A stretch of DNA of 64,000 nt from Candidatus Omnitrophota bacterium (GTDB lineage: Bacteria > Omnitrophota > Gorgyraeia > Gygaellales > Profunditerraquicolaceae), in the NCBI GenBank assembly GCA_030693145.1, contig JAUYBI010000068.1, positions 16,374 to 80,373 on the forward strand, read 5' to 3'. The notes beneath the pieces were generated by a model. It did not search any database, had not been told where the DNA came from, and saw only the letters and a list, made by a program, of their open reading frames with translations. The position numbers and the translations under genes are program-made. Of the stretch, positions 10,591 to 55,830 are shown one piece after another (within the stretch, counting starts at the first letter, position 1; the number at the start of each line of letters is the position of its first letter).

Positions 10591-10596
10591 GAATTC

Positions 10597-12807: not shown

Positions 12808-12836
12808 TCTTTGTGGCGGGACTTTATATTAAAAAA

Positions 12837-15971: not shown

Positions 15972-16004
15972 CCCCTGGATTGATGGTGAGCGAAAGTCGA
16001 ACCA

Positions 16005-17267: not shown

Positions 17268-17290
17268 ATTCTCTCCTTATCTACTAAGAT

Positions 17291-18432: not shown

Positions 18433-18433
18433 A

Positions 18434-19516: not shown

Positions 19517-19539
19517 CTTTTAATAAAATCTCCGGTAAG

Positions 19540-31818: not shown

Positions 31819-31837
31819 TTTATCTTTCACTCCTTGT

Positions 31838-31945
31838 GTAGTGACACAACACCGGCGCAATACCGCTTAGCGCCGGGTGTCTCATGTAGTGACACCTGCC
31901 TACCGGCAGGCAGGCAACACCGGCGCAATACAAATTAGCGGAGTG
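31838..31945. repeat. Repeat family B, copy 2 (caacaccggcgcaataccgcttagcgccgggtgtc twice, plus gtagtgacac direct repeats and the cctgcctaccggcaggcagg palindrome)
   Basis: Direct sequence match to 17291-17372. Confidence 0.7.
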
Positions 31946-33084: not shown

Positions 33085-33097
33085 CGTGATTTCTCCT

Positions 33098-33170
33098 GTC
33101 ATTCCCGCAAAAACGGGAATCTATTTTTTTTCTAGATCCCCACTTTCGTGGGGATGACGCTTCGCGTCAC
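33098..33170. repeat. Repeat family C copy: double hairpin gtcattcccgc-aaaaa-gcgggaatc ... gatccccac-tttc-gtggggatgac
   Basis: Same architecture as 51376-51424 and 51894-51952. It encodes the odd C-terminal tail ([12 protein letters not shown]) of the clpP ORF. Confidence 0.8.
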
Positions 33171-34715: not shown

Positions 34716-34806
34716 GTCATTCTGAGGCCACATTCGCTTCGCTCAGTGCGGGCTCCGGCCGAAGAATCTCGCCGGCAATGTGATCCTTCGCTCCGCTCAG
34801 GATGAC
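34716..34806. repeat. Repeat family C variant (gtcattctgagg ... gccgaagaatctc ... gatccttcgctccgctcaggatgac)
   Basis: Matches 41663-41729. The outer gtcat/atgac arms are shared with the other family C copies. Confidence 0.75.
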
Positions 34807-34831
34807 AAAAAAGGGTATTTCGCAATAAACC

Positions 34832-40519: not shown

Positions 40520-41463
40520 ATCTTCTCAATTACGCTTTGCGCTAAAAGCGGAAGCATGATTTCATGGTGTCCGATAATATAATACCCCTTACCCCCGGAA
40601 GCAGTGGGCCGGCTGACCACGTTCTGTGCCGCTCGATACTGATAAAGCATATCAAAATTCGCGGAAGTAAAATCTTTAACTTTATTTCCTAAATTCCGGG
40701 CAAGGTTGAGGGCCTTTAGGAATACCTCCGGCAACATCACTGCTGAACCAAAATTTAAAACCACTCCCCCCTGATTTAAGGAAGGGATGTTTTCTGCCAA
40801 AATATGGAAATCCCGCAATGAACCCACGGCCGTAGAAGCAGCGTCAAATGACTGATGCTGATGAATAATATCCGTGCCAATTCCCACAAAAACACAAACC
40901 GGCACCTTATGTTTATACGCATGATAAAGTAAACTTAAATCTTTATTCGCTAAAGCGGTTGTGGCTATCGCATTCGCCACGGCATAACCTAAACCAAAAC
41001 CTTTCTTTACCCCTTCCTTGGCCGCGCAGTTTAAGAAATCCGCGGTCTCCTTACCCATGCCGAATTTTCCGGTTTTGAGGTTTGCGGCAACATCTTCGGA
41101 GGTTTTCCCCTGAAAAGCAATTTCAAAATCATGAATAATACCCGCGCCGTTTAGGCAAATACAGGAAATTACTTTTTTCTCAAGCAACTCAATTAAAACC
41201 GGATTCAGCCCGCACTTAATCACGTGCGCCCCGGCCATCAAGATTACTCCTTTATTTTTCTTGCGCGCGGAAACAATATCCGCAGAAACCGCACGCAAAT
41301 CTTTGGCTTTTAGAATATTAGGTAAAGAATCCAAAAAGCTGACAAAGCTTTTAGCTTTGGCGGGTTTGGAGGCAAAATCCCCCTTATTCACCTTGCTGGC
41401 GCGCTCTTTAATCGAATATCTTTTTACTTTCTTTAAGTTAATCATAGGAATTGATTTTAACAC
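40516..41463 (-). CDS. Deoxyhypusine synthase-like family protein (tentative)
   Basis: 315 aa. ISCICLNGAGIIHDFE resembles the DHS VDVLVTTAGGVEED region. Low certainty. Confidence 0.3.
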   Translation of the reverse strand: MLKSIPMINLKKVKRYSIKERASKVNKGDFASKPAKAKSFVSFLDSLPNILKAKDLRAVSADIVSARKKNKGVILMAGAHVIKCGLNPVLIELLEKKVISCICLNGAGIIHDFEIAFQGKTSEDVAANLKTGKFGMGKETADFLNCAAKEGVKKGFGLGYAVANAIATTALANKDLSLLYHAYKHKVPVCVFVGIGTDIIHQHQSFDAASTAVGSLRDFHILAENIPSLNQGGVVLNFGSAVMLPEVFLKALNLARNLGNKVKDFTSANFDMLYQYRAAQNVVSRPTASGGKGYYIIGHHEIMLPLLAQSVIEKI

Positions 41464-41501
41464 AATTCAACCTGAAATCAAATAGAAATATTTGATGGAC
41501 A

Positions 41502-41600
41502 CTATAATAAACTCTGCTGACTTTTATTAACAATAGTGGGGTGGGTTTAAACCCACCCTACTATTGAAAGTCAACAAGGTTTATTACACTGTCATTTGAT
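41502..41600. repeat. Repeat family A, copy 2 (aactctgctgacttttattaa ... tagtggggtggg-tttaaa-cccaccctacta ... ttgaaagtcaacaaggtttattacactg)
   Basis: About 95-nt match to 53925-54030 in the same orientation. The stem has compensatory substitutions relative to copies 1 and 3. Confidence 0.85.
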
Positions 41601-41662
41601 GGGATTTTTCTTTTTAAGAGAACCTTCTGATCATGGGACTGTTGCGAAATTCAATTTGTACC

Positions 41663-41729
41663 GTCATTCTGAGGCCGAAGGCCGAAGAATCTCGACGCTG
41701 ATAAGATCCTTCGCTTCGCTCAGGATGAC
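41663..41729. repeat. Repeat family C variant copy
   Basis: gtcattctgaggccgaaggccgaagaatctcg ... gatccttcgcttcgctcaggatgac. The + strand track ORF at 41596..41784 is its spurious translation. Confidence 0.75.
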
Positions 41730-41960
41730 GGAGAATGGCATTTCGCAACAGGCTCATTATATAAGAATAGATGGCCTCAGATAAAAACTCCCTGTCTTTC
41801 GAACAGAAAGCTGGAGAAAAATCGTAATTTGTAAAATTAGAGAAAAATTGGCAGGTTTTATAAAATTTTAGTACAAATTGTAACTTTATCGTAGTGCTGG
41901 GCTCTAAGTTTATAAGTTTTATGCGCCTATTTGAACGGGCTAAACAAAAACGGTCTAAGA

Positions 41961-42647
41961 TTATTCACGGGGTTCTTGTTCTGCTTCCAGTTTTATCTGA
42001 TGCTGCCAGATGAAAAAGAATCCGGCGCCTAAAATACCAAGAAATATAACAATGAATAAAATAATCTTCCAGGTAAATTTGGCTAATCCTTTAGGTGCGA
42101 CTTCTGACAAAAGGGTCTTTGCGGCTACCAAATCAGCCTTGGCGGAATTAAGCAAACTCAAACTATTGCGATAATTAGAAATTTTATAATCCGGACCGAC
42201 AGATGACAGATCTTGCATAGCCTCTGCCTCTTTTAATTTATTATCTACCCCATCATAGAGCGGTTTGGCGCGGTCATAATAATCTGTTTTCTTGAATTCA
42301 TCCAAGATTGCTTTAGCATCCTGACGCATTATTGCTATCTGGGTTGGATCAATCACCCAAACATCTTTAATCTCTATTTCTTTTTCTAATTTCTCTTTGG
42401 GCTCAAGCAAATATTCACCGAAAACATAATAACTCCCTTGTTGGGCGTCATAAGCAATCTCAAGGTCGCCTTTATAAAGAACATCTTCGGGTTTTACTTC
42501 TAAAGGAAGGTAAACTTTAATCGGAACTGTTTTATCTGAATCAGCGGGATTTACAGCTATAAGACGCATAGTAATTCCAGCTTGGGCGGGTATGCAAAAT
42601 AACAAACCAAAAACAAAAAACAGAAAAGCAAACTTCCTAATTTTCAT
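41961..42647 (-). CDS. Signal-peptide protein with a C-terminal transmembrane anchor, hypothetical; immediately downstream of the giant surface protein
   Basis: 228 aa. N-terminal signal peptide with AQAG cleavage context. C-terminal TM segment KIILFIVIFLGILGAGFFFIW. Confidence 0.5.
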   Translation of the reverse strand: MKIRKFAFLFFVFGLLFCIPAQAGITMRLIAVNPADSDKTVPIKVYLPLEVKPEDVLYKGDLEIAYDAQQGSYYVFGEYLLEPKEKLEKEIEIKDVWVIDPTQIAIMRQDAKAILDEFKKTDYYDRAKPLYDGVDNKLKEAEAMQDLSSVGPDYKISNYRNSLSLLNSAKADLVAAKTLLSEVAPKGLAKFTWKIILFIVIFLGILGAGFFFIWQHQIKLEAEQEPRE

Positions 42648-42695
42648 ACTTATACGCGCTGCATACCGTAACTATGGTTGAACTAAAGTATAAAT

Positions 42696-45600
42696 TTATT
42701 TAAATTCAAACCAGCTCTGCACAACAGGTTTCTTATTCTGGTCTTCAATCAACTTTTTATTAATTTCCATGGCCGCTTTTAACTCTTCAGACTTATTCTT
42801 AATGTAAGTTATATCATTATTTTTATCTTTGGAAACTTCATAAAGTTTTTCAAGGTTAATCCCTTTTGTCCCGCCGATATCCTCAATCTGCTTGCTTATC
42901 GCCTCCAGCTGTTTAAAAGCGCTGGCCAGATCATCTACCGCGTTCTTGGTATCTCCGAGTTTACCGGCAATATCTTTACTAATCTTAGTCAATAGTTTAT
43001 CCATATCATTAAACTGTAAACCTATTGTTTCAGCAACATTCTTTAATCCGCTTATACCGGAGGTTGAACCTAAAACCGCAGAAACCTGCCCGGAAACATC
43101 CTCTAAATTAGATTGAGTCACCGTCATCACCAAAGCATCAACAGTACCATTGGTAGACTCGGAACAAATCACAGTAAAAGTGCCTAAGCCCCAACTGGCT
43201 AAAAATGTAACATTATATTCATAAATACCTGCAGCGCCTATCTCTGTCATTCCTTTGTTTGAAAGAAGCAGGACGTCCTTAGGGCTGTAAATGTTTAAAA
43301 CAGGAGCTAAGCCGGTAACAGTACGGTAACGTATGGTCATCTTTCCACCCTGTTTAATCGTCGTTTCGCTGTTAAGAATCCCCGAGGTTATATGCGGCTT
43401 AATCTTGGTAGCAATGTTATCCGTTATCGCTGTTTGTGCTGTGGTTATCTGCGCAGGTATGGCGGTAGTAGTAGTTAAAATCTGCCCTGCTTGAGCACTT
43501 ACTTGCGCAACCTTTGCCTGAGTAGCCGCAGCCGTAGACTCTATTTTCGACGTCAGTTGCGACCTGGTAAGAGCCCCTTCAGAGGCAACCGAAGCCGCAA
43601 TCTGCCCGGCCAGAGTATTTAAAGTTGACATTACCGAGATAGTAAAATCATTGGCCGCCGAATACGTGACATTCGTTGATAAATCGACTCCGCCGTAGAG
43701 AATAGTCATTTTGGCAAAATAATTCCTGCCCCTGACAAAACCCTTTGCCGCTACGGCATTATCAATATTAAAATAATAATTGCTGTTTGCATCAGTCACA
43801 GCCAATGAAGCGGTATATTTAGGATTAACCGCGTCGGAACTATCGAAGATCTTCAAAGTGCTGGTTTTTAGAGTATTTATGTCATCGCTGGTAATCTGCT
43901 TACCTCTTTTCTCCAGCCGCACCAAGCCAGTTATCCGGTCATTAGCTTCATCGTAGACAAAGTTACTTAATACTTTGTAATCCGCCAGAGATTCAGCAGT
44001 GGACATAAGAAACACGGTCCAGCTAATATTATTGTCGTACGCGCCATCAACCGCATCCGCGGAGACATTCGCAGTCTTATCAACTGTACTCTCTACGTAT
44101 GCGGTTTTATTAAAATTAAAACTATAATTTCCGTAAGGCAAATTAAACGAAAATGGGCTATTACCGATTATCGGGTTGGTAAGGCCGGTGACTAATTGTC
44201 CGGTGTTTGAATCAATAATCTTAAGCGTAAGTTCGGTCAATGGGCTGCCATTTACCGAATCAAATGCTTTCATTGTAATCGCATATTTTTCTACTACGGT
44301 TACATTATTAGATGCGCCGCTGGCGGTAACTCCAGCGGCAGTGGCATTTAAGGTAACTATCCCCGGATAAACTGCGCAATACACCGCAAGATTATCAAAA
44401 GTCGCTATACCGGATACCGTTGCCACTTGAGCAGTTGCTCCCGCTCTCAAAGTGCCTCCAGTAGGGGCAACCGTTAGATTAATTGCGCTGGGAGCGATAT
44501 TTCCATAAGTATCAACTACACTCACTTTAAACGAAGACCACGGCGCGTTAGCCACCACTGTAGCCACCGGTTGAGTATTCCAAGAAAGTTTACTTGCAGC
44601 GCCGCCGGTAACTACCACAGCTAAGGCATCTGCATCTGGAGTGGTAATTACAGCATCTGAGGTCTTTGTTTTAATAGCCGCGCTTTCAGCTTTATATAAC
44701 TTCATCGTTATAGTCGAAATGCTCTGCCCTGAGGTAAAATTCACCAGCGTAATATTTCCAAATGCTATATCTACCGCCGAATAGTTTGTGCAAGTAGGAT
44801 TATAAGTAGTGCCTCCGCTTGTCGCGGAATTGGCGCCGCTAAAGATTATCTCTTTTACACCGCTATAGTCCGTGTCTAGGTTATTGTTGATATCTGTTGC
44901 TTTAGTAGTTACAGTGCTGCTTGCTCCGGCAGCCACAATAGCGCTGTCTCCGCTAACCATAAATTTAGTAACTGTTACATCAACAACCAAAGAACTGGTT
45001 ATTGCGCCGGCAGCGGCAAATGCTGAACCGGGAGAATCTACGGTAAGGTTAGCAGTGGGGTTAACGCTAAAAGCAATGGCCTTTCCGTCTGCTCCCACAG
45101 GCAAAGTTTGATTGAGGTAAACGCTTAAAGTGTAAGTCTTGCTTTGCCCATCAGGCACAGAAGAAATTATGCTGGTGCCGGTTCCAAAAGTTAAAGCGTC
45201 ATTTGTGATTGTGCCCATTATCGAAGTGGTGCCGTCGGATATGGCGGCTCCGGCAATATAACTCTGCCAACCGCCGGTGGTATCCGTGGCAGTGTTTCTG
45301 GCAATTACAATCTGTTTAAGCTTTGTCGCGTATCCGTCTGAACCGGCATCAGTAACCTTAAAATCAAAAACCTGCAACTTCGCCGCATCAGTATAGATTA
45401 AGGAAGATATACTGGTTGGTTTGACTAACGGGCCGGTTGCGATGGCAGTATCCGCGCCAACCTTAAAGGTTATCTGATAAGAATATATATCCGGCGCCAG
45501 ATTTCCCATTGAATGCGCCTTTAAATATATGCTTTCCGGATAACTATATTTTATCCCGCTAAAAGTTGCCACGCCGTTTACTAGAACCACTGCTAGAGAA

Positions 45601-48600
45601 TCACCGCTTAATGTTCCGTTGGTAACTGGAGTATAAGTTCCGCTGGTAAGCGAAGGAAGCAAGCTAATCTGGTCAGAAACTGAGGTAACCGCATTACCAT
45701 ACTGATCAGCCACATTAACTTTTGGCTGCGCGGGTAAAGCAATATTGGTAAAAGGATTTGTAGAGGGTTGTTGAGAAAACCAGAGTTTGCCCATCGCTGC
45801 TGCTTGCATAGTAATTGAATTAGAAGCGATATTTGCTCCCGTTAAATCAGCAGCGTTTGCCGTAATCGTAGTAGATTGAGCGCGATACAAAGTAACGCTC
45901 AAAGCCGCTGACACACCGTTAGTAAAACTAACCGGGTTAGTTGGCCAGAGATCGGTCGCGGAGCCGTCAGGGGCATTGGTTAAGCCGCTTAAAACATAGC
46001 TGATAGTTTTACTTCCGGTGTAGGCTGCGCCTCCGTTTGCTCCGTCACATAAGTTATTATATAAATCCACGGCATTTAACGCCCCTAAACTAATAGCGGT
46101 GCCAACTGTAGCTCCATTAACCGTTCCGGAAAATTTCAAATGGTCTGCCGTATTATGTTTAACCACAAATCCCAAGGCCTGGGCATTAGATGTAGTCACC
46201 GGCAGAGCACTTGTCTTAATCAACACACTCTCTGCCTTATATAATTTTAAAGTAGCAGTAGCTGCGCCATTGGTAAAAGTAAGCAAAGTATCCGCGCCAA
46301 AATTTATATCATTACTAAGATTATTTGAAGAGGTTGGCGAATTACTTGAAGGCGCAAGTGATGCATTGGCTCCGGAAAATACTATTGCCACATCGCTATT
46401 TAAATTTGTCTTTACGTTATCATATGCATCATAAGCAGTAATCGTAATCGGCCGGGAACTACCTGCAGTCAATGTGGTGGTTGAGCCGGTAATTGCAAAG
46501 TGGTCAAGGCCCGCGGCAAGAATATTTATAGACGCCGAAGATGAGCTCACGTTCAAACTATCACCTGCGCTGCGCGCTGCGGTAATAGCCGGAAGCCCGA
46601 TGGCAGTATCTTTGTAATAGAAAGCCGCGCTGCTTGCGCCTGAGGCTACCGTTATACTGCTAATGCTGATGGTGCCTGCGCTATCGCTATAAAAACTCCC
46701 GGTAGCAACGTTGCTGGTAAGAAGAAATGCAGTGGCGGTTACGGCATTTGTAAGATTATCATAGGAATCCTTGATTATCGCGGAAAACGCCGTAGAAACT
46801 ACTCCGGCGTTGCTTGAGCCCGGGCCGCTTAAGACTACTTTATAAGGAACTCCGGCTAAACCGGTAGCGGTAAAATTAACCGAGGTTAATCCGGCATAGC
46901 TTACCGTCACCACATAATCACCTGTTTTATTTCCTAGAGTAAGCACTGTTTGTGCCTGGCCATTTGCGTCAGTAGTAGCTGAAGTAACTGACAATACCTG
47001 GCCCGTTGCTCCGGTAGGAACGGAAGAAATTGCAAAAGTTACGGTTTCATTCGGGATAGCCACATTACCTGCGCCAACGAGTTTAACTACCAAGGGGTCA
47101 GTTAAAATAAGGGCAACTGTTTTAGACTGGCTATCTCCGCTGATTTTATTTAACGTTGAAGGCGTAACTGCTATGCTAGTAAAGGTTATTGGCGAGCCGG
47201 TAAGCCCGGTAGAAGTTGCTGTTACTTGATATTGGCCTGCAGTATTTCCTAAAGTAAGCGTGGTCTGTGCCTGGCCGCTTGCATCAGTGGTGGCTGAAGT
47301 AACCGACAATACCTGGCCGGTTGCTCCGCCAGGCACAGAGGAAATTGCAAAAGTTACGCTTGCGCCGGAAACCGCGTTGCCATAAGCATCTTTGACAGTT
47401 ACGACAAAGGGATTGGCTAAAGCAACAGAGACTTTTCCACTTTGGCTATCCCCGCTGGCAAGACTCATATTCGCAGCGCTGGCAGAAGGCGCAGTTACGG
47501 TTACTGTCAGAGGAAATACCGCATAACTCTGCCCTACTTCGGAAACGGAAAACGAAGCGGTTTCTGCCTTGTAAGCAGTCAAGGTAGCTCCATTTGCCAG
47601 AGATACACCGCCGGGAGAAATCGGAAAATTAATTGTTGTATTATAACCAAGGGTAACGCCATTCATCGCAGGATTATTACCACCTATACTAGCTAATCCT
47701 GAAAATATAAATGTATGATTATTGATGTAATCCTTATCAATATTTTTATTAGCGTCTGTTGCTCTCACCGTGAGATTTACCGGCGAACCAGCGGCAACAC
47801 TAATCGAGGAATTTCCGGTAGCTTGCCCTACAACCTCTAAGTAAGACACAACCACGGTAATTGTGCCGGTTACCGTAGTCACCTTACTGGTATTCGCGCT
47901 CATTTGCGTAGAAACCCCCGTATCGGTTCCTATGCCTGTTTCATTTATGCCAAATGTATAAGTTTGTCCTTCTGTGGCAGTCAGTTTTCCGGGTTTCATA
48001 TAGATATAAACTGTAAACTCGATAGCCGTATTATCGGCTATCGAATACAAATCCGCAATTGAGTTACTATTCGGGGTAATGCCAAAGGTAATTGTAGAAT
48101 TGGTAATTGCCGGCCCTGTGGCTGTAGCCACCTGAGTTGCTCCCTGATACAATCCCGCCCAGGCAATATCTGTCGCGGCATTGCCGCCGGTGCCGCCTAC
48201 GGTTAGCTGAATTCTATCAATCTGCGTCGGAACCGAATCTGTGCCTGTATCTTTAACCTTAAAACTTAATACCGCGAATTTATTCGCCAATTCGCTGTTG
48301 GTAGGAGCAAGGTTAAAATTAGTTACCGGCACAGCAGCTAACTCTACCGTAGAGTCGCTGGCAGTAGAAAAAGTAATCCCGGTGGAAAATACCGGCTGAA
48401 GAGTTCCGCTCTGGGCATAAAGATAGATTACTCCGGTAGTATTATACTTTACACCGCTGAAATTCGCCTGGCCGGCTATTGCTGAAAGAGGATTAGCGGC
48501 AGCCGCTAATGTCCCCGGAGCAGCAGTATAAACTGAATTAGATGTTGAGGCATAAAGCGTTATCGGGTCAGTATCAGTTGTCTGATTACCGTAAGCATCC

Positions 48601-50000
48601 TGGATAGCCACTATCGGCTGGCTAGCCAGAACATTATTTATTGCAGCAGTAGAAGGCGGCTGTTGTTTAAAAGCCAATTTTGCCTTTGTGCCGGGGTTAA
48701 CTGTAGTTGTTCCGGTGGCAGTAGATGGCGTCATTGTGTCTCCGGCGCTTCTGGTTGCGGTAATTGTGGGCGTGCCGGTTTTAGTATCTTTGTAGTAGAA
48801 GGTTGCGTTGCTTGTGCCTGCCCCGATGGTTACGCTGGTAATTGTCGTTGTGCCTGCTGCATCGCTATAAAAGGTAACTGTGCCGGTTGAGTTAGAAGAA
48901 AGCGAGAACGTCGTAGCTAAAGTAACATTGGCGCCGGTATTGCCATAAATATCCATACCAGTAATGGTAAAAGCGCCTGAAACAGTTCCGGCAATTACCG
49001 AAACCGAACTTGAAATACTTGCCCTAGAAGCAGCTGCAGCGTTAAAAGTTATGGGCAGGGATGTGCCGGTCATCGAAGTATATGTGGCAGTAACCGTAAC
49101 ATTTTCGGATTCAGTGTCGGTTAAGGTAACCGCAGCCGCGCCGTTAGTAAAATCCACTGCTGTTAAAGAGCTCTTGTTCAGAGCAGCAGAGTCAACCACG
49201 GTTCCTCCTGTTTCAGCTTTGGTTACACTTACGCTAGTGGCAGGACTATAAACAGTAATAGTATTGCCGGCTGAATCTTTGGCAGTAATCGTTACTGTCT
49301 GATTCTGGCCTGCAATTGCCTGATAAGTCGGATGCGTTACTAAAAAATAGTCGGTGTTAGCGCTACTTAGAAGGATATCGCCAGAGGCAAATGAAAAGTA
49401 TCCATCATAACTGCCTCCGGCAAAAAGAACACCTGCGCTTGAAATAATTTGGATTGTTTTATTATCTTTTATATAGCTTACGCCTGTATTATAAATATCC
49501 AATCCTAAATAATCTGCTGATGCGGCAGCGGTAAAGCTGGTAAAAGAAAGCCCTCCGACAGTAATATATTCGCTTGCTATAAAATTAGAGGTAACATTTA
49601 AGACTAATATTTGGCCTGAACCCTCATAAGTTACCACGGTGCTTACTTTAGCAGAAGCAGTGCCGCTAATGGTGGCAGTAGTTTTAGTGGTATCCCAGAG
49701 CATACCAAAGCCCGAGGGAATTCTTATCCTTAAATCGTTAATCGCAGTAATGGCTCCGCCGGTAGAATCAGTTATGGTTATGCTGGAGATAGCCGTAGAC
49801 GCCTGGCCAACTACAAAACTCTGATTAGCAGCAGCCGAAGAAATAGTTACGTTAGGCCCGCCAAGATTAAGGTCAACAGAGACGCCTGAGCCATAGCCGT
49901 CGTAACTGCCGCCGGTGTAGTCGGCAAAGGCAACGCCTACGCAGGCAAATAACAGCGCAACCGTCAGCACTACCTTATTCAGCGTATTAAACTTCATCAT
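42696..50000 (-). CDS. Giant (2434 aa) secreted surface protein with many bacterial Ig-like (Big_1/invasin-type) repeats and a C-terminal coiled-coil region
   Basis: Signal peptide MMKFNTLNKVVLTVALLFACVGVAFA. T/S/A/G-rich beta repeats including repeated GQVLSVTSATTDA(S/N)GQAQT(T/V)LTLGN units. The last ~300 aa are K/E-rich and heptad-like. RBS agaggtgg lies 5 nt before the ATG. Only a 12-nt gap separates it from the DGR RT stop. Confidence 0.8.
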   Translation of the reverse strand: MMKFNTLNKVVLTVALLFACVGVAFADYTGGSYDGYGSGVSVDLNLGGPNVTISSAAANQSFVVGQASTAISSITITDSTGGAITAINDLRIRIPSGFGMLWDTTKTTATISGTASAKVSTVVTYEGSGQILVLNVTSNFIASEYITVGGLSFTSFTAAASADYLGLDIYNTGVSYIKDNKTIQIISSAGVLFAGGSYDGYFSFASGDILLSSANTDYFLVTHPTYQAIAGQNQTVTITAKDSAGNTITVYSPATSVSVTKAETGGTVVDSAALNKSSLTAVDFTNGAAAVTLTDTESENVTVTATYTSMTGTSLPITFNAAAASRASISSSVSVIAGTVSGAFTITGMDIYGNTGANVTLATTFSLSSNSTGTVTFYSDAAGTTTITSVTIGAGTSNATFYYKDTKTGTPTITATRSAGDTMTPSTATGTTTVNPGTKAKLAFKQQPPSTAAINNVLASQPIVAIQDAYGNQTTDTDPITLYASTSNSVYTAAPGTLAAAANPLSAIAGQANFSGVKYNTTGVIYLYAQSGTLQPVFSTGITFSTASDSTVELAAVPVTNFNLAPTNSELANKFAVLSFKVKDTGTDSVPTQIDRIQLTVGGTGGNAATDIAWAGLYQGATQVATATGPAITNSTITFGITPNSNSIADLYSIADNTAIEFTVYIYMKPGKLTATEGQTYTFGINETGIGTDTGVSTQMSANTSKVTTVTGTITVVVSYLEVVGQATGNSSISVAAGSPVNLTVRATDANKNIDKDYINNHTFIFSGLASIGGNNPAMNGVTLGYNTTINFPISPGGVSLANGATLTAYKAETASFSVSEVGQSYAVFPLTVTVTAPSASAANMSLASGDSQSGKVSVALANPFVVTVKDAYGNAVSGASVTFAISSVPGGATGQVLSVTSATTDASGQAQTTLTLGNTAGQYQVTATSTGLTGSPITFTSIAVTPSTLNKISGDSQSKTVALILTDPLVVKLVGAGNVAIPNETVTFAISSVPTGATGQVLSVTSATTDANGQAQTVLTLGNKTGDYVVTVSYAGLTSVNFTATGLAGVPYKVVLSGPGSSNAGVVSTAFSAIIKDSYDNLTNAVTATAFLLTSNVATGSFYSDSAGTISISSITVASGASSAAFYYKDTAIGLPAITAARSAGDSLNVSSSSASINILAAGLDHFAITGSTTTLTAGSSRPITITAYDAYDNVKTNLNSDVAIVFSGANASLAPSSNSPTSSNNLSNDINFGADTLLTFTNGAATATLKLYKAESVLIKTSALPVTTSNAQALGFVVKHNTADHLKFSGTVNGATVGTAISLGALNAVDLYNNLCDGANGGAAYTGSKTISYVLSGLTNAPDGSATDLWPTNPVSFTNGVSAALSVTLYRAQSTTITANAADLTGANIASNSITMQAAAMGKLWFSQQPSTNPFTNIALPAQPKVNVADQYGNAVTSVSDQISLLPSLTSGTYTPVTNGTLSGDSLAVVLVNGVATFSGIKYSYPESIYLKAHSMGNLAPDIYSYQITFKVGADTAIATGPLVKPTSISSLIYTDAAKLQVFDFKVTDAGSDGYATKLKQIVIARNTATDTTGGWQSYIAGAAISDGTTSIMGTITNDALTFGTGTSIISSVPDGQSKTYTLSVYLNQTLPVGADGKAIAFSVNPTANLTVDSPGSAFAAAGAITSSLVVDVTVTKFMVSGDSAIVAAGASSTVTTKATDINNNLDTDYSGVKEIIFSGANSATSGGTTYNPTCTNYSAVDIAFGNITLVNFTSGQSISTITMKLYKAESAAIKTKTSDAVITTPDADALAVVVTGGAASKLSWNTQPVATVVANAPWSSFKVSVVDTYGNIAPSAINLTVAPTGGTLRAGATAQVATVSGIATFDNLAVYCAVYPGIVTLNATAAGVTASGASNNVTVVEKYAITMKAFDSVNGSPLTELTLKIIDSNTGQLVTGLTNPIIGNSPFSFNLPYGNYSFNFNKTAYVESTVDKTANVSADAVDGAYDNNISWTVFLMSTAESLADYKVLSNFVYDEANDRITGLVRLEKRGKQITSDDINTLKTSTLKIFDSSDAVNPKYTASLAVTDANSNYYFNIDNAVAAKGFVRGRNYFAKMTILYGGVDLSTNVTYSAANDFTISVMSTLNTLAGQIAASVASEGALTRSQLTSKIESTAAATQAKVAQVSAQAGQILTTTTAIPAQITTAQTAITDNIATKIKPHITSGILNSETTIKQGGKMTIRYRTVTGLAPVLNIYSPKDVLLLSNKGMTEIGAAGIYEYNVTFLASWGLGTFTVICSESTNGTVDALVMTVTQSNLEDVSGQVSAVLGSTSGISGLKNVAETIGLQFNDMDKLLTKISKDIAGKLGDTKNAVDDLASAFKQLEAISKQIEDIGGTKGINLEKLYEVSKDKNNDITYIKNKSEELKAAMEINKKLIEDQNKKPVVQSWFEFK
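46930..47370 (-). repeat. Near-identical intragenic tandem duplication of about 300 nt (two Big_1 units) inside the giant gene
   Basis: gaagtaactgacaatacctggcc ... ggaagaaattgcaaaagttacg recurs about 300 nt apart with few differences. Confidence 0.7.
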
Positions 50001-50012
50001 CCACCTCTGCAG

Positions 50013-51074
50013 TTAATTGGTTAATAAATTTTGCGCCAGATAACCGATACTGCTTTTTTTCCTGGCTAACTCCTTAAAGATACTTCTGCGTAAAGTTGCG
50101 GTGTTAGCGTATTTACTGTGCGCTGCCCAGCAACGCAGAGAGTCCCTGACCGCGGCCTTTGTAATTTTGCCGCTGGCAAATAAAAAGTCAAATTTATTGA
50201 GCTGTTTTTTAAAACGTTTCACATTATCGGAAGTAAGCCGGCGATACCCGGAGAACAGCCTAAAGCCCAAAAACTTTATGCCCTCAGACGCAGAATAAAT
50301 CTGCGATTTATCTTGGTGCAGTCGAAGCTCTAAACTGGCGTGCAAAAAATTTCTTATTCTTTCTTTAATCTCAACCAGCCTTATTTTTTCATTGCTAAAA
50401 ATTAAAAAATCATCCATATAGCGCAGATAATACCTTATTCTCAAATCAAATTTTATAAAATAATCCAATTCGTTTAAATAAAGGTTGGCAAAAAACTGGC
50501 TGGTGAGATTACCGATGGGTAAACCTACGCCTAACTGCAGACAGGCAGGCAATGACCTAGCCGAATCAACAATCTCATCCAAAAGCCAGAGGGCGTCTTT
50601 ATCCTCAATCCTCATTCTTAAAATCCCCTTAATGATCCGGTGGTTGATGGAAGGAAAATATTGTTTGATGTCGCCGTGAAAACAAAATTTATTCGCCCGT
50701 AAAAATCCCTGCGCCCTGTCCACCGCCTTATGCGTTCCCTTGTCTTTCCGGCAGGCGTAAGAATCGTAAATAAAAGTCTTATCGATTATCGGCTCAATAA
50801 CATCGTGCACCGCGTGATGCACAACCCTGTCCTTAAAAGGTGCTGCGGCGATATTGCGTTCTTTCGGGTCATAAATTTTAAATAAACGGTATTTCCCATG
50901 GCGATAGGTTTTGCGAAGCAATTCTTTATGCAGAAGGTCAATCTTTTCCTCAAGAAAAAAATTAAAATCCGCCGTTGAATCCCTGTATCGCCTGCCTTTT
51001 GAGGCCATAAAGGCCGAGTGATAAAGATTTTCTTTTGATATTATTTTAGGATAAATATTGTTTATCTTCACCAT
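50013..51074 (-). CDS. Diversity-generating retroelement (DGR) reverse transcriptase
   Basis: 353 aa. RT motifs include NIAAAPFKDRVVHHA, LPIGNLTSQFFANLYLNELD (the DGR-specific I/LGxxxSQ) and YLRYMDDFLIF (YxDD catalytic motif). Lies next to the TR/VR pair. Confidence 0.9.
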   Translation of the reverse strand: MVKINNIYPKIISKENLYHSAFMASKGRRYRDSTADFNFFLEEKIDLLHKELLRKTYRHGKYRLFKIYDPKERNIAAAPFKDRVVHHAVHDVIEPIIDKTFIYDSYACRKDKGTHKAVDRAQGFLRANKFCFHGDIKQYFPSINHRIIKGILRMRIEDKDALWLLDEIVDSARSLPACLQLGVGLPIGNLTSQFFANLYLNELDYFIKFDLRIRYYLRYMDDFLIFSNEKIRLVEIKERIRNFLHASLELRLHQDKSQIYSASEGIKFLGFRLFSGYRRLTSDNVKRFKKQLNKFDFLFASGKITKAAVRDSLRCWAAHSKYANTATLRRSIFKELARKKSSIGYLAQNLLTN

Positions 51075-51142
51075 ATTTTCCTCGTCATTGCGTTATAGTA
51101 GCGGACGTTTAAACGTCCGCTACTGGATTCGTGTAAAACTAA

Positions 51143-51270
51143 AGAGGTTTTGACGGCACGGCCGCCGTTATTGTTGTTCCGATTCGCATTCGTGTTCGCC
51201 GCGTTGTTGCGGTCAGAGGCGCGAGCGTTCGTCGCAGCATTGTTCCAATTGCCGCCGCGATTGCCAGCAC
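51143..51270 (-). repeat. DGR template repeat (TR), about 128 bp
   Basis: Matches the 3' end of the target gene (52008-52136). In my manual alignment all 17 differences are at TR positions that are A on the coding (minus) strand. It is AAC-codon rich on the coding strand. Confidence 0.85.
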
Positions 51271-51375
51271 AACACTTTTACGACGCTGAACCATTTTTTA
51301 AAACCATATCGGGTAGAAACTTACTTCACAACAGGCCTCCGCCCGATATTACTGCGTGTTTTCCCTCCACCTTGT

Positions 51376-51424
51376 GTCATTCCCGCGCATGCGGGAATCT
51401 GATCCCCGCTTTCGCGGGGATGAC
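51376..51424. repeat. Repeat family C copy between TR and avd (gtcattcccgcgcatgcgggaatct gatccccgctttcgcggggatgac)
   Basis: Double-hairpin architecture. The track ORF 51321..51596 is its spurious translation. Confidence 0.8.
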
Positions 51425-51516
51425 GTATAGCGGAGGATGGAAATAGCGTCTGAACCTCTCCAGTTCTAGTTCCGCTCCCGGGGTCCGTAGGCCGCGGGAT
51501 TCTGGAATATATGTCC

Positions 51517-51855
51517 TCAAAGAACAGACATCTTAAGCCAACCGCCAACCATTTTTCCGATTTCAATGGCTGATTGGCAGAAAAAATCATAAGCATTGAT
51601 ATTAACGTACTTCATATCTTTGGCGATTCGCATCATAAAACGTAAAACATCTAATTTCAGATTAATCTTTATTAAGATCTCTCTTTTCTGCTTGGAATAA
51701 TTGGCTTCGATCAGCATTTCCAATATATCCAGCAGGATCCTCTCGATCCTGTCTGCCAGTAAAAATTTCTGATCCTTGGGGAAATTTGCCATTTTGGGCA
51801 GCATCCAGAGGATCAATTTGTAATGCTTTTCCACTACCGGTGTTACTGTTTTCAT
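51517..51855 (-). CDS. avd: DGR accessory variability determinant (Avd-like)
   Basis: 112 aa, basic, predicted helical. Sits between target/VR and TR/RT as in canonical DGRs. The C-terminal IGKMVGGWLK resembles the end of Bordetella phage bAvd (recalled from memory). Confidence 0.7.
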   Translation of the reverse strand: MKTVTPVVEKHYKLILWMLPKMANFPKDQKFLLADRIERILLDILEMLIEANYSKQKREILIKINLKLDVLRFMMRIAKDMKYVNINAYDFFCQSAIEIGKMVGGWLKMSVL

Positions 51856-51875
51856 CTTACAGCCTCATTCCATCC

Positions 51876-51952
51876 GTCATTCCCGTGATCCCTGTCATTC
51901 CCGCGGAAGCGGGAATCTACTTCTTTTAGATCCCCACTTCCGTAGGGATAAC
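51876..51952. repeat. Repeat family C copies (one partial, one full) immediately downstream of the VR and upstream of the avd start
   Basis: gtcattcccgtgatccct then gtcattcccgcggaagcgggaatc ... gatccccacttccgtagggataac. Confidence 0.75.
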
Positions 51953-52001
51953 AACTTACAAATCCTCAAAAGAACAAATAACCAAAGTTCTACAAAACCT
52001 C

Positions 52002-53486
52002 TTATGGAGAGGTTCTGACGGCACGGCCGCCGTAATCGATGTCCCGACCCGCACTCGTGAACGCCGCGTAGTAGCGGTCAGAGGCGCGAGCGTACGTCGC
52101 AGCATTGCCCCAACTGCCGCCGCGATAGCCAGCACCAACCGCATCTGTAACAGGCCAATTAGTAACATTGGCATTTCCTGTTCCGTCTAACGCGCCGTCT
52201 CCATTTAAACCCGTAAAAGCCCTGCCTGTAGTATTCCCTACGGTAACCGGCCTCTCCCAGAGATTTCCGGAAAGTTCCATTACACCATAATAGCCTGCCC
52301 CACTGGTTACCCTTGTACTTGAACCAGTAGCGAATATACCGCATCTTAAAGGGCCTGTTCCCGCGTCCCCGCCGATAAAAGTTGTGTTATTATAAGCGCA
52401 ATTTGCCCCGGCGTTGGTAATTGTCTCGGTGCCGTTTTCTGCGCCGGATATGTCTCGAGCCGCGGTAATGCTTGTGCTCCCCCAGGCGTATTCATTGGGC
52501 GTAGAGACAGAATCTCCTCTGGCTGCCTTTTCAAATTCTAACTCTGTGAAAGGCCTTAAGGCCGCCCAATCAAAATAAGCGGTTACATCCGCCCAGGAAA
52601 TAAAATTGCACGCCCTGTCCGGACGGGACGCGGAATAATTCGGGTAGGTGCCGGAAATAGTATGGCGGTAAGTAGTTTGAGCCGGATATCTGGTTGTGGC
52701 TTGCGCTGAGGTAATGGTGTTTAAAAAATCCGCGTATTGGCCTTGGGAGATTTCGTATTTCATCATATAGAATGCCGCGTATCCTTTGGGGAATGCCACC
52801 GGGATTGGCCCGGCCTGGTCGCCGCCGTAAGTGCTTAACGCATAATAGAGATTACCGGCTGTTGTCCCTACGGTAATCTCGTTTTCTGAAGCTATTAAAT
52901 AGGCATTCGTGGTTGTGGGATAGGTATAGAATGCTGACGTCTCAGTTCCACCCGAACCTACATAGAAAGCGCTGGTAGGAATATAGACCATCTCTATGGC
53001 AAATACCTTTACCCGCACAGTACTTGTGCTGATAACGCCATCCGCGCCATAATCCCAAACAAATTGGATAGAACTTGTGGAAACGCTTCCTGCACCATTA
53101 GCCGAACGCTGCAGAAAAACGCCTTTTTTATCCGCGGGCACAATAATATCCAGAGCCGTACCTGAGCCCTGAGAAAAACCCGCAGGATTTGTACCTGAGG
53201 TTTTAAGCGTAGCGTGATTCCAACTTACTCCTGCGTTTGTGGAATATTTGATAAATACCCAGGCCGCGTCATAATTAGCAGCCGTTCTCCAGGAGTTATC
53301 CCAGGAAATATTAAACTGTACTGCTGCCGTCACTTGGCCTAAAGATACATTGCCTAGAGAAACAGTTGAAACGTTAAGATTATTCGCTTCTGCCTTATCT
53401 ATCAGAAGGCAAAAGACAAAAGACAAAAGACAAACAGAAAATAAAAACAAACAATATTTACATCCCTGCCGGCTATTTTTTTTCAT
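52002..53486 (-). CDS. DGR target protein: secreted/membrane-anchored protein with a C-terminal C-type-lectin/FGE-like fold carrying the variable region
   Basis: 494 aa. N-terminal hydrophobic leader. C-terminal motifs YMMKYEISQGQYADF, VMELSGNLWERP and YRGGSWGN are typical of DGR variable-protein CLec folds. The VR forms its last ~43 codons. Confidence 0.85.
   Translation of the reverse strand: MKKNSRQGCKYCLFLFSVCLLSFVFCLLIDKAEANNLNVSTVSLGNVSLGQVTAAVQFNISWDNSWRTAANYDAAWVFIKYSTNAGVSWNHATLKTSGTNPAGFSQGSGTALDIIVPADKKGVFLQRSANGAGSVSTSSIQFVWDYGADGVISTSTVRVKVFAIEMVYIPTSAFYVGSGGTETSAFYTYPTTTNAYLIASENEITVGTTAGNLYYALSTYGGDQAGPIPVAFPKGYAAFYMMKYEISQGQYADFLNTITSAQATTRYPAQTTYRHTISGTYPNYSASRPDRACNFISWADVTAYFDWAALRPFTELEFEKAARGDSVSTPNEYAWGSTSITAARDISGAENGTETITNAGANCAYNNTTFIGGDAGTGPLRCGIFATGSSTRVTSGAGYYGVMELSGNLWERPVTVGNTTGRAFTGLNGDGALDGTGNANVTNWPVTDAVGAGYRGGSWGNAATYARASDRYYAAFTSAGRDIDYGGRAVRTSP
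52008..52136 (-). repeat. DGR variable repeat (VR) with a GC-rich IMH-like 3' end (cggcggccgtgccgtc on the coding strand)
   Basis: Aligned with the TR at 51143-51270. Every substitution sits at a TR adenine on the coding strand. Confidence 0.85.
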
Positions 53487-53571
53487 CGCTACTTCCCTCC
53501 TTCTAATCTCTTAGAACTTATAAAATAAAACTCCACGACTTTACGGACGTGGAGTTACGCTGGATAATAAA

Positions 53572-53620
53572 AAAGCCCGAATTTCTAATGACTTAAGAAA
53601 TTCGGGCTTTTTTATCAGCC
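53572..53620. terminator. Bidirectional intrinsic terminator hairpin (aagcccgaatttct-N-agaaattcgggctt) flanked by A/T tracts
   Basis: 13-bp stem with T-runs on both sides. It separates the TA/RAYT region from the DGR target promoter region. Confidence 0.5.
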
Positions 53621-53657
53621 TCTGGCTGACAACTAAAAAATTTTTACTTAAAAAGGA

Positions 53658-53712
<55 letters not shown>

Positions 53713-53924
53713 ATACCATTGTCTCCATTAAAAAATCCCCAGCAGGTTATGCCGGGGATAATTCCCTAAAAAACTTTTTTCACTTCGGCAGTCTGCCTTT
53801 CCGCTTTCGCGGAAGCATAACTTTGCGTCCTCCGATTACCCGGAGTTTGCCTTTTCGGTTCCATTCCTGCTTTTTCTATATATAAGTATAACATAAATTT
53901 TATTCCTTTCAAGCTCCGCACATT

Positions 53925-54030
53925 TTTGACATTATATTAAACTCTGCTGACTTTTATTAATTATCAATTATAGTAGGGGAGGTTTAAACCTCCCCTACTA
54001 TTAAAAGTCAACAAGGTTTGTTACACTGTA
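53925..54030. repeat. Repeat family A, copy 3 (aactctgctgacttttattaattatcaattatagtaggggaggtttaaacctcccctactattaaaagtcaacaaggtttgttacactg)
   Basis: Direct repeat of copy 2 (41502-41600). Together the two copies bracket the DGR plus giant-protein block. Confidence 0.85.
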
Positions 54031-54409
54031 GCATTTTTTTGAATACATAGCGTTAACAGATGCGTAATACCAGACTGTACTTATGTATTTTATTTTAACA
54101 GGTCATGATATTAATTGCAATAAAAATCTTTCTACAATCTGCAAAAATTTTTTAACAAACTTTCTGAAAAACTACCCAAAGCTAAACCAGAGGTCTCTGA
54201 TTGCATAGATTTTAAAAAGCTTGAACAGATTGTCCGCTATTGTCTTAATCTGTGTATCCTACCTTTTAATATGCTCATACCGCAAAAAATAATTCCCAAC
54301 AAGATAGAATATGCCTGTGCGTATTACCTGCTTTCGAGGGTATTCCCGTATTATTCTATTAGCTGTAAAACTCCTTTAATTCCAAGCAGTTACATGTTGA
54401 ATGTAATAT

Positions 54410-54667
54410 TTACCTATAAACTTCTCTTCTATGATCAATTCTAATTATGCCGATATATTTTTCTGTCTTTGAAAAGGAATATATTACTCTGTAATCACCA
54501 ATGCGATATGCATAGCAACCCTTGAATTCTGCCTGTAAGGGTTTACCTATAAGGGGGTCGCTGGCAATATACTCTAATGCTGAAGCAACCCTTTCTTTAA
54601 GTTTTTTATCTTTGAGTTTTTGGAATTGACCTGAGGAGATATTCGAAAATCTGATAGGATAGCTCAT
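54410..54667 (-). CDS. relE: RelE/ParE-family type II toxin
   Basis: Short basic protein with YRVIY motif. Overlaps the antitoxin gene. The start is likely MSYPIRF (54667), not the track's upstream Met. Confidence 0.65.
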   Translation of the reverse strand: MSYPIRFSNISSGQFQKLKDKKLKERVASALEYIASDPLIGKPLQAEFKGCYAYRIGDYRVIYSFSKTEKYIGIIRIDHRREVYR

Positions 54668-54668
54668 A

Positions 54669-54938
54669 TTAATTTCTTTGCGGCCGGCCCACCACTTCTT
54701 TAAAGCTTTTAGTTTTACCAAGGCTTAATTCTCTTTTTGCCTTTCTAATTTCTCCCAAAGCTTTTCTATCAGACATTATTTCTAAAGTTTCAAGCCACCC
54801 TTCAAATTCATCAGCATTCATTACTACTGCTGCCGGCTTTCCCCGCTTAGTTATTATAAATCTTTCCAGCCTTTTGTCAGAGTTTCTAATCAGCTCTAAA
54901 AAATGCGCCTTTGCTTCGGTAACAGTTAATGTAGTCAT
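54669..54938 (-). CDS. yefM: Phd/YefM-family antitoxin
   Basis: 89 aa. N-terminal MTTLTVTEAKAHFLELI is typical of YefM. Immediately upstream of the toxin. Confidence 0.7.
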   Translation of the reverse strand: MTTLTVTEAKAHFLELIRNSDKRLERFIITKRGKPAAVVMNADEFEGWLETLEIMSDRKALGEIRKAKRELSLGKTKSFKEVVGRPQRN

Positions 54939-54950
54939 ATCTTTACCTCC

Positions 54951-55166
54951 CTAAATATTTCTCTTTTTACCATTTAAAGTATAAATCATAATTCTAAACT
55001 TGTCAAGGACAAAATGACTATTTTTATGACTATAAAGGAGATCATTCCTATCATCCGCAATGACATCGCCATTTTGGGCGCCCACGAGGGGCGCCCCTAC
55101 GATTGCGATCACACCATGCAAATGATTCGGTAATTCCGGGCACCATGCAGGTAATTCCGGGGACAC
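54951..55166 (-). pseudogene. Fragmentary duplicate of the RAYT/IS200-like transposase (HuH region only)
   Basis: An 88-bp segment (55051-55137) duplicates 55449-55536 within the intact gene. It encodes PNHLHGVIAIVGAPLVGAQNGDVIADDRND. Confidence 0.5.
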
Positions 55167-55198
55167 ATTACTTAATTATTTTACCAATTCAAGTAAGT

Positions 55199-55822
55199 TC
55201 AAGTTTTTGTTTCTGAGGCATAATATTCATCCTCTTCCCATTTTACCGGATTATTAACGATATATTCCCGAATACGATTTAAATCGTTATCATTGCGGAT
55301 AACATGTTCATAATAATTGCGCTGCCAGAAATATTCGTCAAACGGTAACCAATTTTCATTTTTGACATTTCGAATATATTCATTTGTGGTAATTGATTTA
55401 AACGCGCCAATAATATCTCCCAACGTAGGGGCAACCCTCGTGGTTGCCCGATCATTCCTATCATCCGCAATGACATCGCCATTTTGGGCGCCCACGAGGG
55501 GCGCCCCTACGATTACGATCACACCATGCAAATGATTCGGCATTACGATAAATTCATCCAATTCAATAAATTGAAACCGTTGTTGCAATTTATTCCAGCT
55601 GTCTTCAACCATTATACCCACACCATTTAACATTATTTTCCCGCCATCAATATCACCAAATAAATTCCGGCGTTCATTTACGCATACCGTCACAAAATAA
55701 TACCCTGCCTGCGAATAATCATAACCCGCCAAACGAATCGACCTGCGATTCCTATTATCAAAACCTACGCGCATTATTTTTTCCAATTCACGTAGGGGCA
55801 ACCCTTGTGGTTGCCCCATCAC
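55199..55822 (-). mobile_element. IS200-like / REP-associated tyrosine transposase (RAYT, COG1943)
   Basis: 207 aa. RLAGYDYSQAGYYFVTVC N-motif, HuH motif MPNHLHGVI and a C-terminal catalytic Tyr region FWQRNYYEHVIR. GTAG-palindromes (gtaggggcaaccctygtggttgcccc) occur at its 5' end and internally. Confidence 0.8.
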
Positions 55823-55830
55823 CGTCCCCT

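Follow-up and report, generated by a model that had tools for sequence, protein, structure and literature searches.

Within a lipopolysaccharide (LPS) biosynthesis cluster of Candidatus Omnitrophota (assembly GCA_030693145.1, contig JAUYBI010000068.1), we found a 14.3-kb segment that, judging by comparison with related genomes, is most probably a horizontally acquired or translocated mosaic of three modules, placed in a variable spacer between LPS genes. Its main cargo is an operon that joins a diversity-generating retroelement (DGR) with a giant adhesin-like protein. The analysed stretch, hereafter the window, is 64 kb long and all coordinates refer to it; from 33 to 64 kb, all its long open reading frames (ORFs) lie on the minus strand. 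An initial annotation had described minus-strand LPS genes on the left (KdsC/D/A/B and HldA-like) and minus-strand GT9/GT4 glycosyltransferases with an LpxL-like gene on the right, and between these flanks a REP-associated tyrosine transposase (RAYT) with a duplicated fragment, a YefM/RelE pair, a DGR and a giant adhesin-like protein, where REP stands for repetitive extragenic palindromic sequences; all of these are present. On the minus strand, the order within the island is RAYT-like gene, 91-nt copy, Phd, RelE/ParE, the lectin-fold target of the DGR, Avd, reverse transcriptase (RT), the Big_1 giant protein, and p228, a membrane protein of 228 amino acids. The island comprises at least three modules and is not one demonstrable element.

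The arrangement had been taken for mobile DNA inserted into a surface-polysaccharide locus, and the comparison with relatives bears this out, as does the presence of the operon at other sites. In every related Omnitrophota genome examined, the double GT9 gene (heptosyltransferase-like) is directly followed by a block of GSU2086-family, HldA and Kds genes, with gaps of 95-950 nt and flanks 85-96% identical to the window; none of these relatives has the order and content seen here. As the double GT9 gene adjoins this block in relatives, the window positions 41494-55830 are extra DNA. The GSU2086-family gene, below called DS-like for its weak match to deoxyhypusine synthase, most likely starts at the ATG at 41445. 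In all relatives examined, the HldA/KdsB/KdsA/KdsD/KdsC/Lpt block opens with this gene, and homologues of its protein come from Candidatus Omnitrophota/Omnitrophica wherever the source names the organism. The island is absent from the GT9/DS site in L002, L003, L004, L172, L173 and other contigs carrying P0060, a DS-like protein 85% identical to that of the window. This set includes at least six loci, ~20 contigs in all, at 85-96% identity. The contig with P0020 begins 80 nt upstream of the DS-like gene and does not cover the spacer.

In the closest relative, L002, only 95 nt separate the double GT9 gene from the DS-like gene, and the flanks are 93-96% identical to the window at the nucleotide level. 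The gap is ~950 nt in L003, with one pilin-like ORF inside, and 440 nt in L004, where it consists of sequence resembling REPs and miniature inverted-repeat transposable elements (MITEs). Since the spacer content differs in every genome, the site is a variable hotspot. The L003 ORF (9235-9699) encodes a 154-aa type IV pilin-like protein, and the L004 spacer (9560-10000) holds a ~170-nt MITE-like element, GCGGGTGGC...GACCCGCGTAA, which is also found upstream of GDT1 in L002 (1-170). Small mobile repeats are dense in the genomes of L002, L003 and L004.

The initial annotation had delimited the island at 41464-55830. Its right edge stands, as the island begins immediately after the GT9 stop codon at 55831, while the left edge moves to 41493/41494, since homology with L002 picks up again at window position 41493. 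No LPS gene is interrupted. A compositional difference from the flanks had also been proposed as a check, and it turned out in part. Measured against the remainder of the window, the tetranucleotide correlation is 0.50-0.71 in the island vs. 0.86 ± 0.02 outside, which is weakly supportive, while the GC content is the same as in the flanks; GC skew in the island is ~0. The deviation is strongest in the giant gene, rich in Thr, Ala, Ser and Gly codons, which confounds the composition test.

The operon spans ~12.3 kb of the minus strand, from a conserved 5' edge at ~54143 to about 41783, and occurs elsewhere as a unit. In L007, a locus from an Omnitrophota metagenome-assembled genome, the riboswitch, target, Avd, template repeat (TR), RT, a 2433-aa giant protein and a 226-aa protein follow in the same order, the window positions 53927-41877 corresponding to L007 5091-17262 with 84-87% nucleotide identity. 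There the operon has OsmC on one side and GDT1-LpxK on the other, about 9 kb away at the opposite end of this LPS cluster; the L007 LpxK is 92% identical to the L002 one. On either side of the L007 copy stand 49 nt of native GDT1 upstream sequence (4980-5028, 17417-17465), a direct duplication of what is single-copy in L002 (170-218). It might represent an att-like core or a long duplication of the target. The same gene order is found in unrelated contexts in L087, L088, L092, L094, L095, L096 and L127, and the neighbours in these metagenome loci are UvrC/PCMT/MBL/VanZ, histidine kinase, or Y1_Tnp genes.

The closest relative of p228 outside the source genome (84% identity) is encoded on L174/L175, where the operon is 85-88% identical to the window at the nucleotide level. 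After p228, these contigs carry sigma70_r4-like, Phage_rep_O, HTH_17 and tyrosine integrase genes, and then tRNA-Lys(CTT); a RepO-like gene follows p228 in L095, too. The window retains a short remnant of this backbone (Table 1). Intact in L174, the terminator hairpin of p228 is cut short in both the window and L007, at a different point in each. We also searched the window for a tRNA-Lys fragment and for remnants of the integrase and RepO genes, and found none. On the most economical reading of these sequences, the operon would be cargo of an integrative element, with the window and L007 holding independently decayed, integrase-less copies. Given the integrase, HTH_17 and RepO neighbours in L174, the window copy is best read as cargo whose recombination module has been lost.

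Table 1. Features of the island and its surroundings (positions in the window, nt).
Feature	Position	Strand	Description
PAL, third copy	7123-7233		
Left flank		-	ClpP, trigger factor, LptB, LptC/LptA-like, KdsC, KdsD, KdsA, KdsB, PfkB/HldA-like kinase, DS-like gene
DS-like gene	40516-41463	-	NCBIfam GSU2086 family; weak deoxyhypusine-synthase match
Conserved promoter-like sequence			TTGATT-16-TAAAAT; beside the DS-like gene start, native side of the left junction
Accessory island	41494-55830	-	14,337 nt; GT9 stop codon to DS-like promoter-like sequence
PAL-A	41498-41592	-	95 nt; -48.7 kcal/mol, z -10.8; directly upstream of the native DS-like promoter
REP3-like element	41637-41748		paralogue at 34757-34825 (2 copies)
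Backbone remnant	41783-41866	-	84 nt, 91.7% identical to the interval between p228 and the sigma-like gene in L174
p228	41961-42647	-	228 aa; AlphaFold2 model, pLDDT 82.7
Giant Big_1 (Ig-like) repeat protein	42696-50000	-	2434 aa; signal peptide, secreted
DGR reverse transcriptase	50013-51074	-	RVT_1 76 bits; IGNLTSQ motif in translation
Template repeat (TR)	51143-51270	-	
REP2/REP4 hairpin doublet	51375-51424		Avd/TR interval; also at 51891-51952 and, in the native flank, 33095-33158
Avd	51517-51855	-	Pfam bAvd 72.7 bits; NCBIfam DivGenRetAVD 106.6 vs. cutoff 80 (equivalog)
GC-rich stretch and hairpin	51993-52017		spans the target stop codon
DGR target	52002-53486	-	494 aa, secreted; signal peptide, C-terminal FGE-sulfatase/C-type-lectin fold
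Variable repeat (VR)	52008-52135	-	3' end of the target gene, up to the stop codon
Leader ORF	53541-53714	-	57 aa; Shine-Dalgarno sequence, ATG, then at once (GACA)13
T2, second leader terminator	53562-53620	-	long hairpin and U-run; -34 kcal/mol, z -7.4
Simple sequence repeat tract	53658-53712		(GACA)13, i.e. (GTCT)13-14
T1, intrinsic terminator	53735-53759	-	25 nt past the aptamer; -19 kcal/mol, z -4.3; kept in L007, L051
c-di-GMP-I (GEMM-I) aptamer	53784-53861	-	RF01051 65.8 bits, gathering score 35
P2, promoter-like	53885-53912	-	TTGAAA-16-TATACT, TG extension; just upstream of the aptamer; kept in L007
PAL-B	53928-54029	-	-42.7 kcal/mol; inserted between P1 and P2
P1, promoter-like	54092-54120	-	TTGCAA-17-TAAAAT; kept in L007, L092
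RelE/ParE-superfamily toxin	54410-54721	-	ParE_toxin 48.2 bits; RelE_StbE 28.6 vs. cutoff 27.9
Phd/YefM antitoxin	54669-54938	-	PhdYeFM_antitox 56.8 bits; phd_fam 40.6
Duplicated RAYT fragment	55040-55130	-	91 nt, 99% identical to 55450-55540 (middle of the gene)
RAYT-like Y1 (HUH) transposase gene	55199-55822	-	Pfam Y1_Tnp 26.3 bits, cutoff 23
REP1 GTAG-footed hairpins	55790-55821; 55423-55454; near 55480-55513	+; +; -	
Right flank		-	double GT9 (55831-57879), GT9, GT4, GT4+GT9 fusion, LpxL+Elm1 fusion

The leader of the operon runs, on the minus strand, from P1 through PAL-B, P2, the aptamer, T1, a Shine-Dalgarno sequence with ATG, (GACA)13 and T2 to the ribosome-binding site and ATG of the target gene. 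The match to the cyclic di-GMP (c-di-GMP) aptamer model is full length, covering model positions 1-87, and the conserved GGCAAAC and GACGCAAAG segments are present. The variant model c-di-GMP-I-GGC scores 57.6, under its threshold of 59, and the predicted riboswitch is of the canonical c-di-GMP-I class. L007 (63.9 bits) and the divergent lineage of L051 and L138 (41.5 bits) have homologous aptamers ahead of the target operon. The first terminator, T1, is likely the expression platform of this riboswitch; in the minimum free energy fold, the aptamer and T1 coexist.

The second terminator, T2, is kept in L007, L092, L051 and L096. In its present frame, the leader ORF of the window reads through the T2 hairpin. 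Repeat tracts are found at the same leader position in other loci, and both the unit and the copy number vary between them: AAGC is repeated 8 times in L007, 7 in L092, 6 in L107 and at least 32 in L096, where the tract reaches the contig edge, and AGAC 7 times in L051, compared with the 13 copies of GACA here. In the window, L007, L092, L107 and L051, the tract stands just past the Shine-Dalgarno sequence and the start codon. When we changed the number of repeats in silico in the window, L007 and L092, exactly one of the three frames passed T2 and the other two stopped 34-38 nt short of it. The present repeat numbers put the window and L007 into the read-through state, but not L092. In the pil1 operon of Streptococcus gallolyticus, changes in the number of GCAGA repeats were shown experimentally to alter the length of a leader peptide, the ribosomes destabilising a premature terminator (PMC3894217). 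By analogy, the architecture of the window leader resembles this phase-variable attenuator.

As predicted from sequence, the DGR of the island is complete, comprising the target, Avd, TR and RT, and the nearest relatives of the RT have the same target-Avd-RT arrangement. All mismatches between the TR and the VR (17/17) fall on TR adenines. The hairpin after the VR has 10 bp; both it and the GC-rich stretch are missing from the TR. In L092 (3051-3336), an insertion of REP-like sequence directly behind the start codon makes up the first ~90 codons of the target as called; this may disrupt the signal peptide, or else translation may in fact begin further downstream. In two DGR cassettes of the L051 type, a tRNA-Val(AAC) lies ~1.2 kb upstream of Avd (L143 281-356, L144 3554-3629).

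The giant gene begins 12 nt past the RT stop codon. Its product, 88% identical in amino acids to the 2433-aa counterpart in L007, has no sequence match in PDB and is a putative fibrillar adhesin. The structural model of p228, a confident one, shows a beta-sandwich and three long helices between a signal peptide and a C-terminal transmembrane helix. For this protein we found no Pfam, NCBIfam or PDB-sequence hit and no significant PDB fold match (best E 0.078). Its 254 homologues make it a conserved partner of giant proteins across Omnitrophota. Among close matches, P0122 of an Omnitrophota metagenome-assembled genome agrees with p228 at 100% over 89% of its length, and the sample SRR13727537 contains proteins identical to p228 and to the DS-like protein of the window. 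Four further loci, L167, L168, L170 and L171 (about 10000-20600), contain giant/p228 pairs in which p228 is 72-79% identical to that of the window. Behind these pairs are Peptidase_MA_2, a gene of the response-regulator-GGDEF type, an F-type ATPase operon and type IV pilus genes, pointing to a conserved supercluster for attachment that includes a diguanylate cyclase of its own. F-ATPase/type IV pilus loci have been associated with symbiosis by Seymour et al. (PMC10066038). The GGDEF and pilus neighbours of the giant/p228 pairs would fit a c-di-GMP-linked role in attachment.

The other two modules lie upstream of the operon. The translation of the RAYT-like gene contains an HLH motif (HUH-type). 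The protein stays below the cutoff of the NCBIfam family REP_Tyr_transpos (67.9 vs. 80 bits), and its match to this family is split by a 30-aa insert encoding REP-like hairpins. This insert, VGAPLVGAQ...RATTRVAPT, is encoded by GTAG-footed hairpins within the coding sequence (55423-55540). Such hairpins, REP1, are found at the 5' edge of the gene and twice inside the ORF, with none on its 3' side and none in the rest of the window. The duplicated fragment breaks exactly at the foot of an internal REP1 hairpin of the intact gene. The antitoxin and toxin genes are adjacent, both above their Pfam/NCBIfam family cutoffs, and form a type II pair.

Accessory DNA would thus have landed in a short, REP-rich, variable spacer between two LPS blocks. 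The first module would be the RAYT-like gene with its own REP hairpins and rearranged fragment, the second the Phd/RelE-ParE addiction pair, and the third, the main cargo, the operon of riboswitch, repeat leader, DGR, giant protein and p228, which would travel as a unit in Omnitrophota. Presumably co-transcribed, the genes of the operon would specify a cell-surface attachment apparatus under three stacked kinds of control. In particular, c-di-GMP would gate transcription; repeat units gained or lost in the leader ORF would act as a stochastic expression switch, with only one of the three frames carrying ribosomes through T2, as in pil1; and mutagenic retrohoming by the DGR would rewrite the ligand-binding face of the lectin-like protein. 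We advance more tentatively, as a possibility that we ourselves rate as rather doubtful, that the operon is a self-contained, transferable host-attachment cassette, in which a riboswitch, a repeat attenuator and a DGR act in series on one transcript, and in which the lectin-like protein with its rewritten binding site would function jointly with the giant Ig-like fibre and the membrane partner of that fibre.

The RAYT-like gene, the toxin-antitoxin pair and the operon could instead form one element that arrived in a single event, moved by the RAYT-like HUH enzyme or by recombination between copies of the palindrome PAL. Y1_Tnp (HUH) genes indeed lie directly upstream of the DGR target in eight other loci (L051, L094, L096, L133, L137, L138, L143, L144), in L094 the operon has Y1 genes on either side, most of the window operon is enclosed by PAL copies in direct orientation, and the L007 copy is surrounded by the 49-nt duplication of the GDT1 upstream sequence. 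However, these upstream Y1_Tnp proteins, ~60% identical among themselves (e.g. L096 545-1309, L051 3809-4537), belong to a different family with no significant similarity to the window RAYT. Moreover, the near-identical operons of L007, L092 and L174 lack the RAYT and the toxin-antitoxin pair. As neither adjoins any other operon copy found, these three included, the two are separate modules. Nor does PAL help, as PAL-B is an insertion in the leader, missing from this position in L007 and L092, and the third copy is 34 kb away; PAL is therefore a dispersed element and not an att site. For the same reasons, we rejected PAL copies as att sites of a 12.4-kb block. The identical spacing of repeats in the window and in L007, 12,437 nt, is a coincidence, since the repeat sequences and their offsets from the operon differ. 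On balance, one element and one event appear unlikely. In L051, the Y1_Tnp gene lies downstream of the same riboswitch/repeat/T2 leader, so that it seems to belong to that DGR sub-lineage as a conserved part and not to stand there by chance.

Several observations weigh against an acquired mosaic with a doubly controlled operon. The window contains no integrase, RepO, tRNA, att repeats or clean target-site duplication, and the only recombinase-type gene in the island is the RAYT-like one. L174 shows one end of the putative element only, and its integrase module may simply adjoin the operon without being its carrier. With the operon 84-87% identical to that of L007, less than the ~92% of the core, vertical descent with local translocation is inseparable from re-acquisition. 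The placement of the island comes from a single metagenome-assembled contig, and Logan contigs, from one sample, back only the junction of PAL-A with native sequence and the p228 end. As to the control of the operon, no aptamer reaches the gathering threshold in the homologous leader of L092 or in the L094 and L096 loci, the L096 contig beginning inside the repeat tract. A 7-bp alternative pairing between the aptamer and T1, a candidate antiterminator that we considered as a clue to the polarity of the switch, is not conserved in L007.

An ancestral island lost from the compared genomes would agree with the GC content, equal to that of the flanks, and with repeats of the host type in the DGR. 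The REP2/REP4 doublet occurs in two DGR spacers, and REP3 at both 34.8 and 41.7 kb, which speaks for some time spent in the lineage. Such a history is nevertheless very improbable. The island is missing from all of the at least six loci listed above, the spacers vary from locus to locus (REP/MITE sequence, a pilin-like ORF), unlike a common deletion scar, and the operon occupies other sites in L007 and L174.

Equally hard to credit is a contig made chimeric by misassembly at repeats, with the island derived from elsewhere in the genome. The region is rich in repeats (PAL, REPs, TR/VR, the tetranucleotide tract), and short-read assemblies of the same sample do break at PAL-A and REP3. However, the PAL copies share only 84-86% identity and no exact run longer than 23 nt, no long repeat lies at the GT9/RAYT junction, and the Logan contig L001, which comes from the same sample and starts inside PAL-A, independently links the DS-like gene to the final 27 nt of PAL-A. 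Least probable of all is a prophage remnant, with the DGR and the giant protein left from a phage receptor-binding apparatus: many DGRs are phage-borne (PMC8144416) and L174 has Phage_rep_O and integrase genes, yet neither the window nor the related loci with annotated flanking genes showed any phage structural genes, IMG/VR has no relative of p228, the best viral RT is 41% identical, and the giant/p228 pair is a widespread chromosomal one, found beside type IV pilus and F-ATPase loci.

As an event, the preferred scenario is ordinary: accessory DNA in a variable spacer of a surface-polysaccharide locus. Its components are also known singly, namely lectin-target DGRs, GEMM-I riboswitches before adhesins, the pil1-type attenuator, and toxin-antitoxin and RAYT genes on accessory DNA. 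Chromosomal DGRs diversify surface proteins with the C-type-lectin fold, such as TvpA of Treponema denticola and LdtA of Legionella pneumophila, and the Legionella DGR resides on a horizontally acquired island. Like these systems, the one described here has an RT, Avd, a TR, and a VR at the C-terminus of an FGE-type C-type-lectin fold, adenine-only changes from TR to VR, a GC-rich stretch and a hairpin past the VR, and a location in accessory DNA. Unlike them, it has behind the RT, in one conserved string of genes, the 2434-aa Ig-like protein (12 nt on) and then a conserved membrane protein, its leader carries a c-di-GMP riboswitch and a repeat-tract ORF, and its lineage is found only on Omnitrophota-type contigs, with no close viral relatives.

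GEMM-I riboswitches precede adhesin, pilus and flagellar genes, as exemplified by Vc2 of Vibrio cholerae and Cd1 of Clostridioides difficile. Similar to these, the window has a full-length RF01051 match, a terminator 25 nt downstream, and genes for surface proteins behind it; unlike these, its aptamer precedes a DGR target, with a second attenuator, predicted to depend on translation, coming after the aptamer. The pil1 leader (Danne et al. 2014, PMC3894217) shares with that of the window short repeats in a leader ORF just past the start codon and a stem-loop terminator between the leader and the structural genes. In both, the number of repeats would set the arrival of ribosomes at the terminator and thereby control an adhesion organelle. 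By contrast, the repeats of the Omnitrophota loci are GACA/AAGC tetranucleotides rather than a GCAGA pentanucleotide, the organism belongs to a Gram-negative candidate phylum, and the attenuator, predicted from sequence, is combined with a riboswitch and a DGR.

The island is also similar to tRNA-adjacent integrase islands in that it is absent from close relatives and carries toxin-antitoxin and transposase-like cargo, and the near-identical operon of L174 lies beside an integrase, HTH_17, RepO and tRNA-Lys. It differs from them in that the window copy has no integrase, tRNA or att repeats and occupies an intergenic spacer of an LPS cluster, and in that the L007 operon is found ~9 kb off in the same cluster with a 49-nt duplication around it. 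Giant Omnitrophota ORFs of >20 kb have been proposed to encode host-attachment proteins (Seymour et al. 2023, PMC10066038; bioRxiv 10.1101/2023.11.21.568195). The giant protein of the window is likewise large, secreted and repeat-rich, and giant/p228 pairs adjoin F-ATPase/type IV pilus loci; unlike the products of those ORFs, it has 2434 aa and is encoded by a gene far under 20 kb. A keyword search of PMC10066038 did not find a link of giant ORFs to DGRs, riboswitches or p228. Our full-text literature search found no paper that links DGRs with c-di-GMP riboswitches or details Omnitrophota DGRs, and no description of riboswitch or contingency-locus control of a DGR target, or of such a serial combination in Omnitrophota, was found.

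The Omnitrophota have not been cultivated; most are ultra-small, they are believed to attach to other cells, and little is understood of their large surface proteins. If the proposed control holds, this would be the first DGR with a target operon under the control of both a riboswitch and a contingency locus, and second-messenger signalling, phase variation and targeted hypermutation would be linked in an ultra-small, probably host-dependent bacterium. More generally, the locus suggests that expression of a DGR target may itself be regulated, and possibly phase-variable. The operon provides concrete hypotheses on how attachment is controlled and varied in Omnitrophota, which can be tested in metagenome reads and by in-vitro RNA assays.

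Finally, three repeat families had been reported in the island by the initial annotation. The repeats are real, and their number is higher, as PAL, REP1, REP2/REP4, REP3 and the (GTCT)13-14 tract were all seen. PAL is an end-to-end, MITE-like palindrome of 95-102 nt (-43 to -49 kcal/mol, z about -9 to -11). Its three copies share one orientation and show compensatory changes in the central stem; no other fetched locus contains PAL. Each copy lies 35-70 nt upstream of a minus-strand gene start or leader, and the downstream end carries a promoter-like sequence, TTAATA-18-TATAAT, so that PAL may be a MITE delivering an outward promoter. Elsewhere in the window (12440-12587, 17276-17374, 31826-31889), there are a 48-nt tandem repeat with 3.1 copies and a family of 48-64 nt with a distant third copy.

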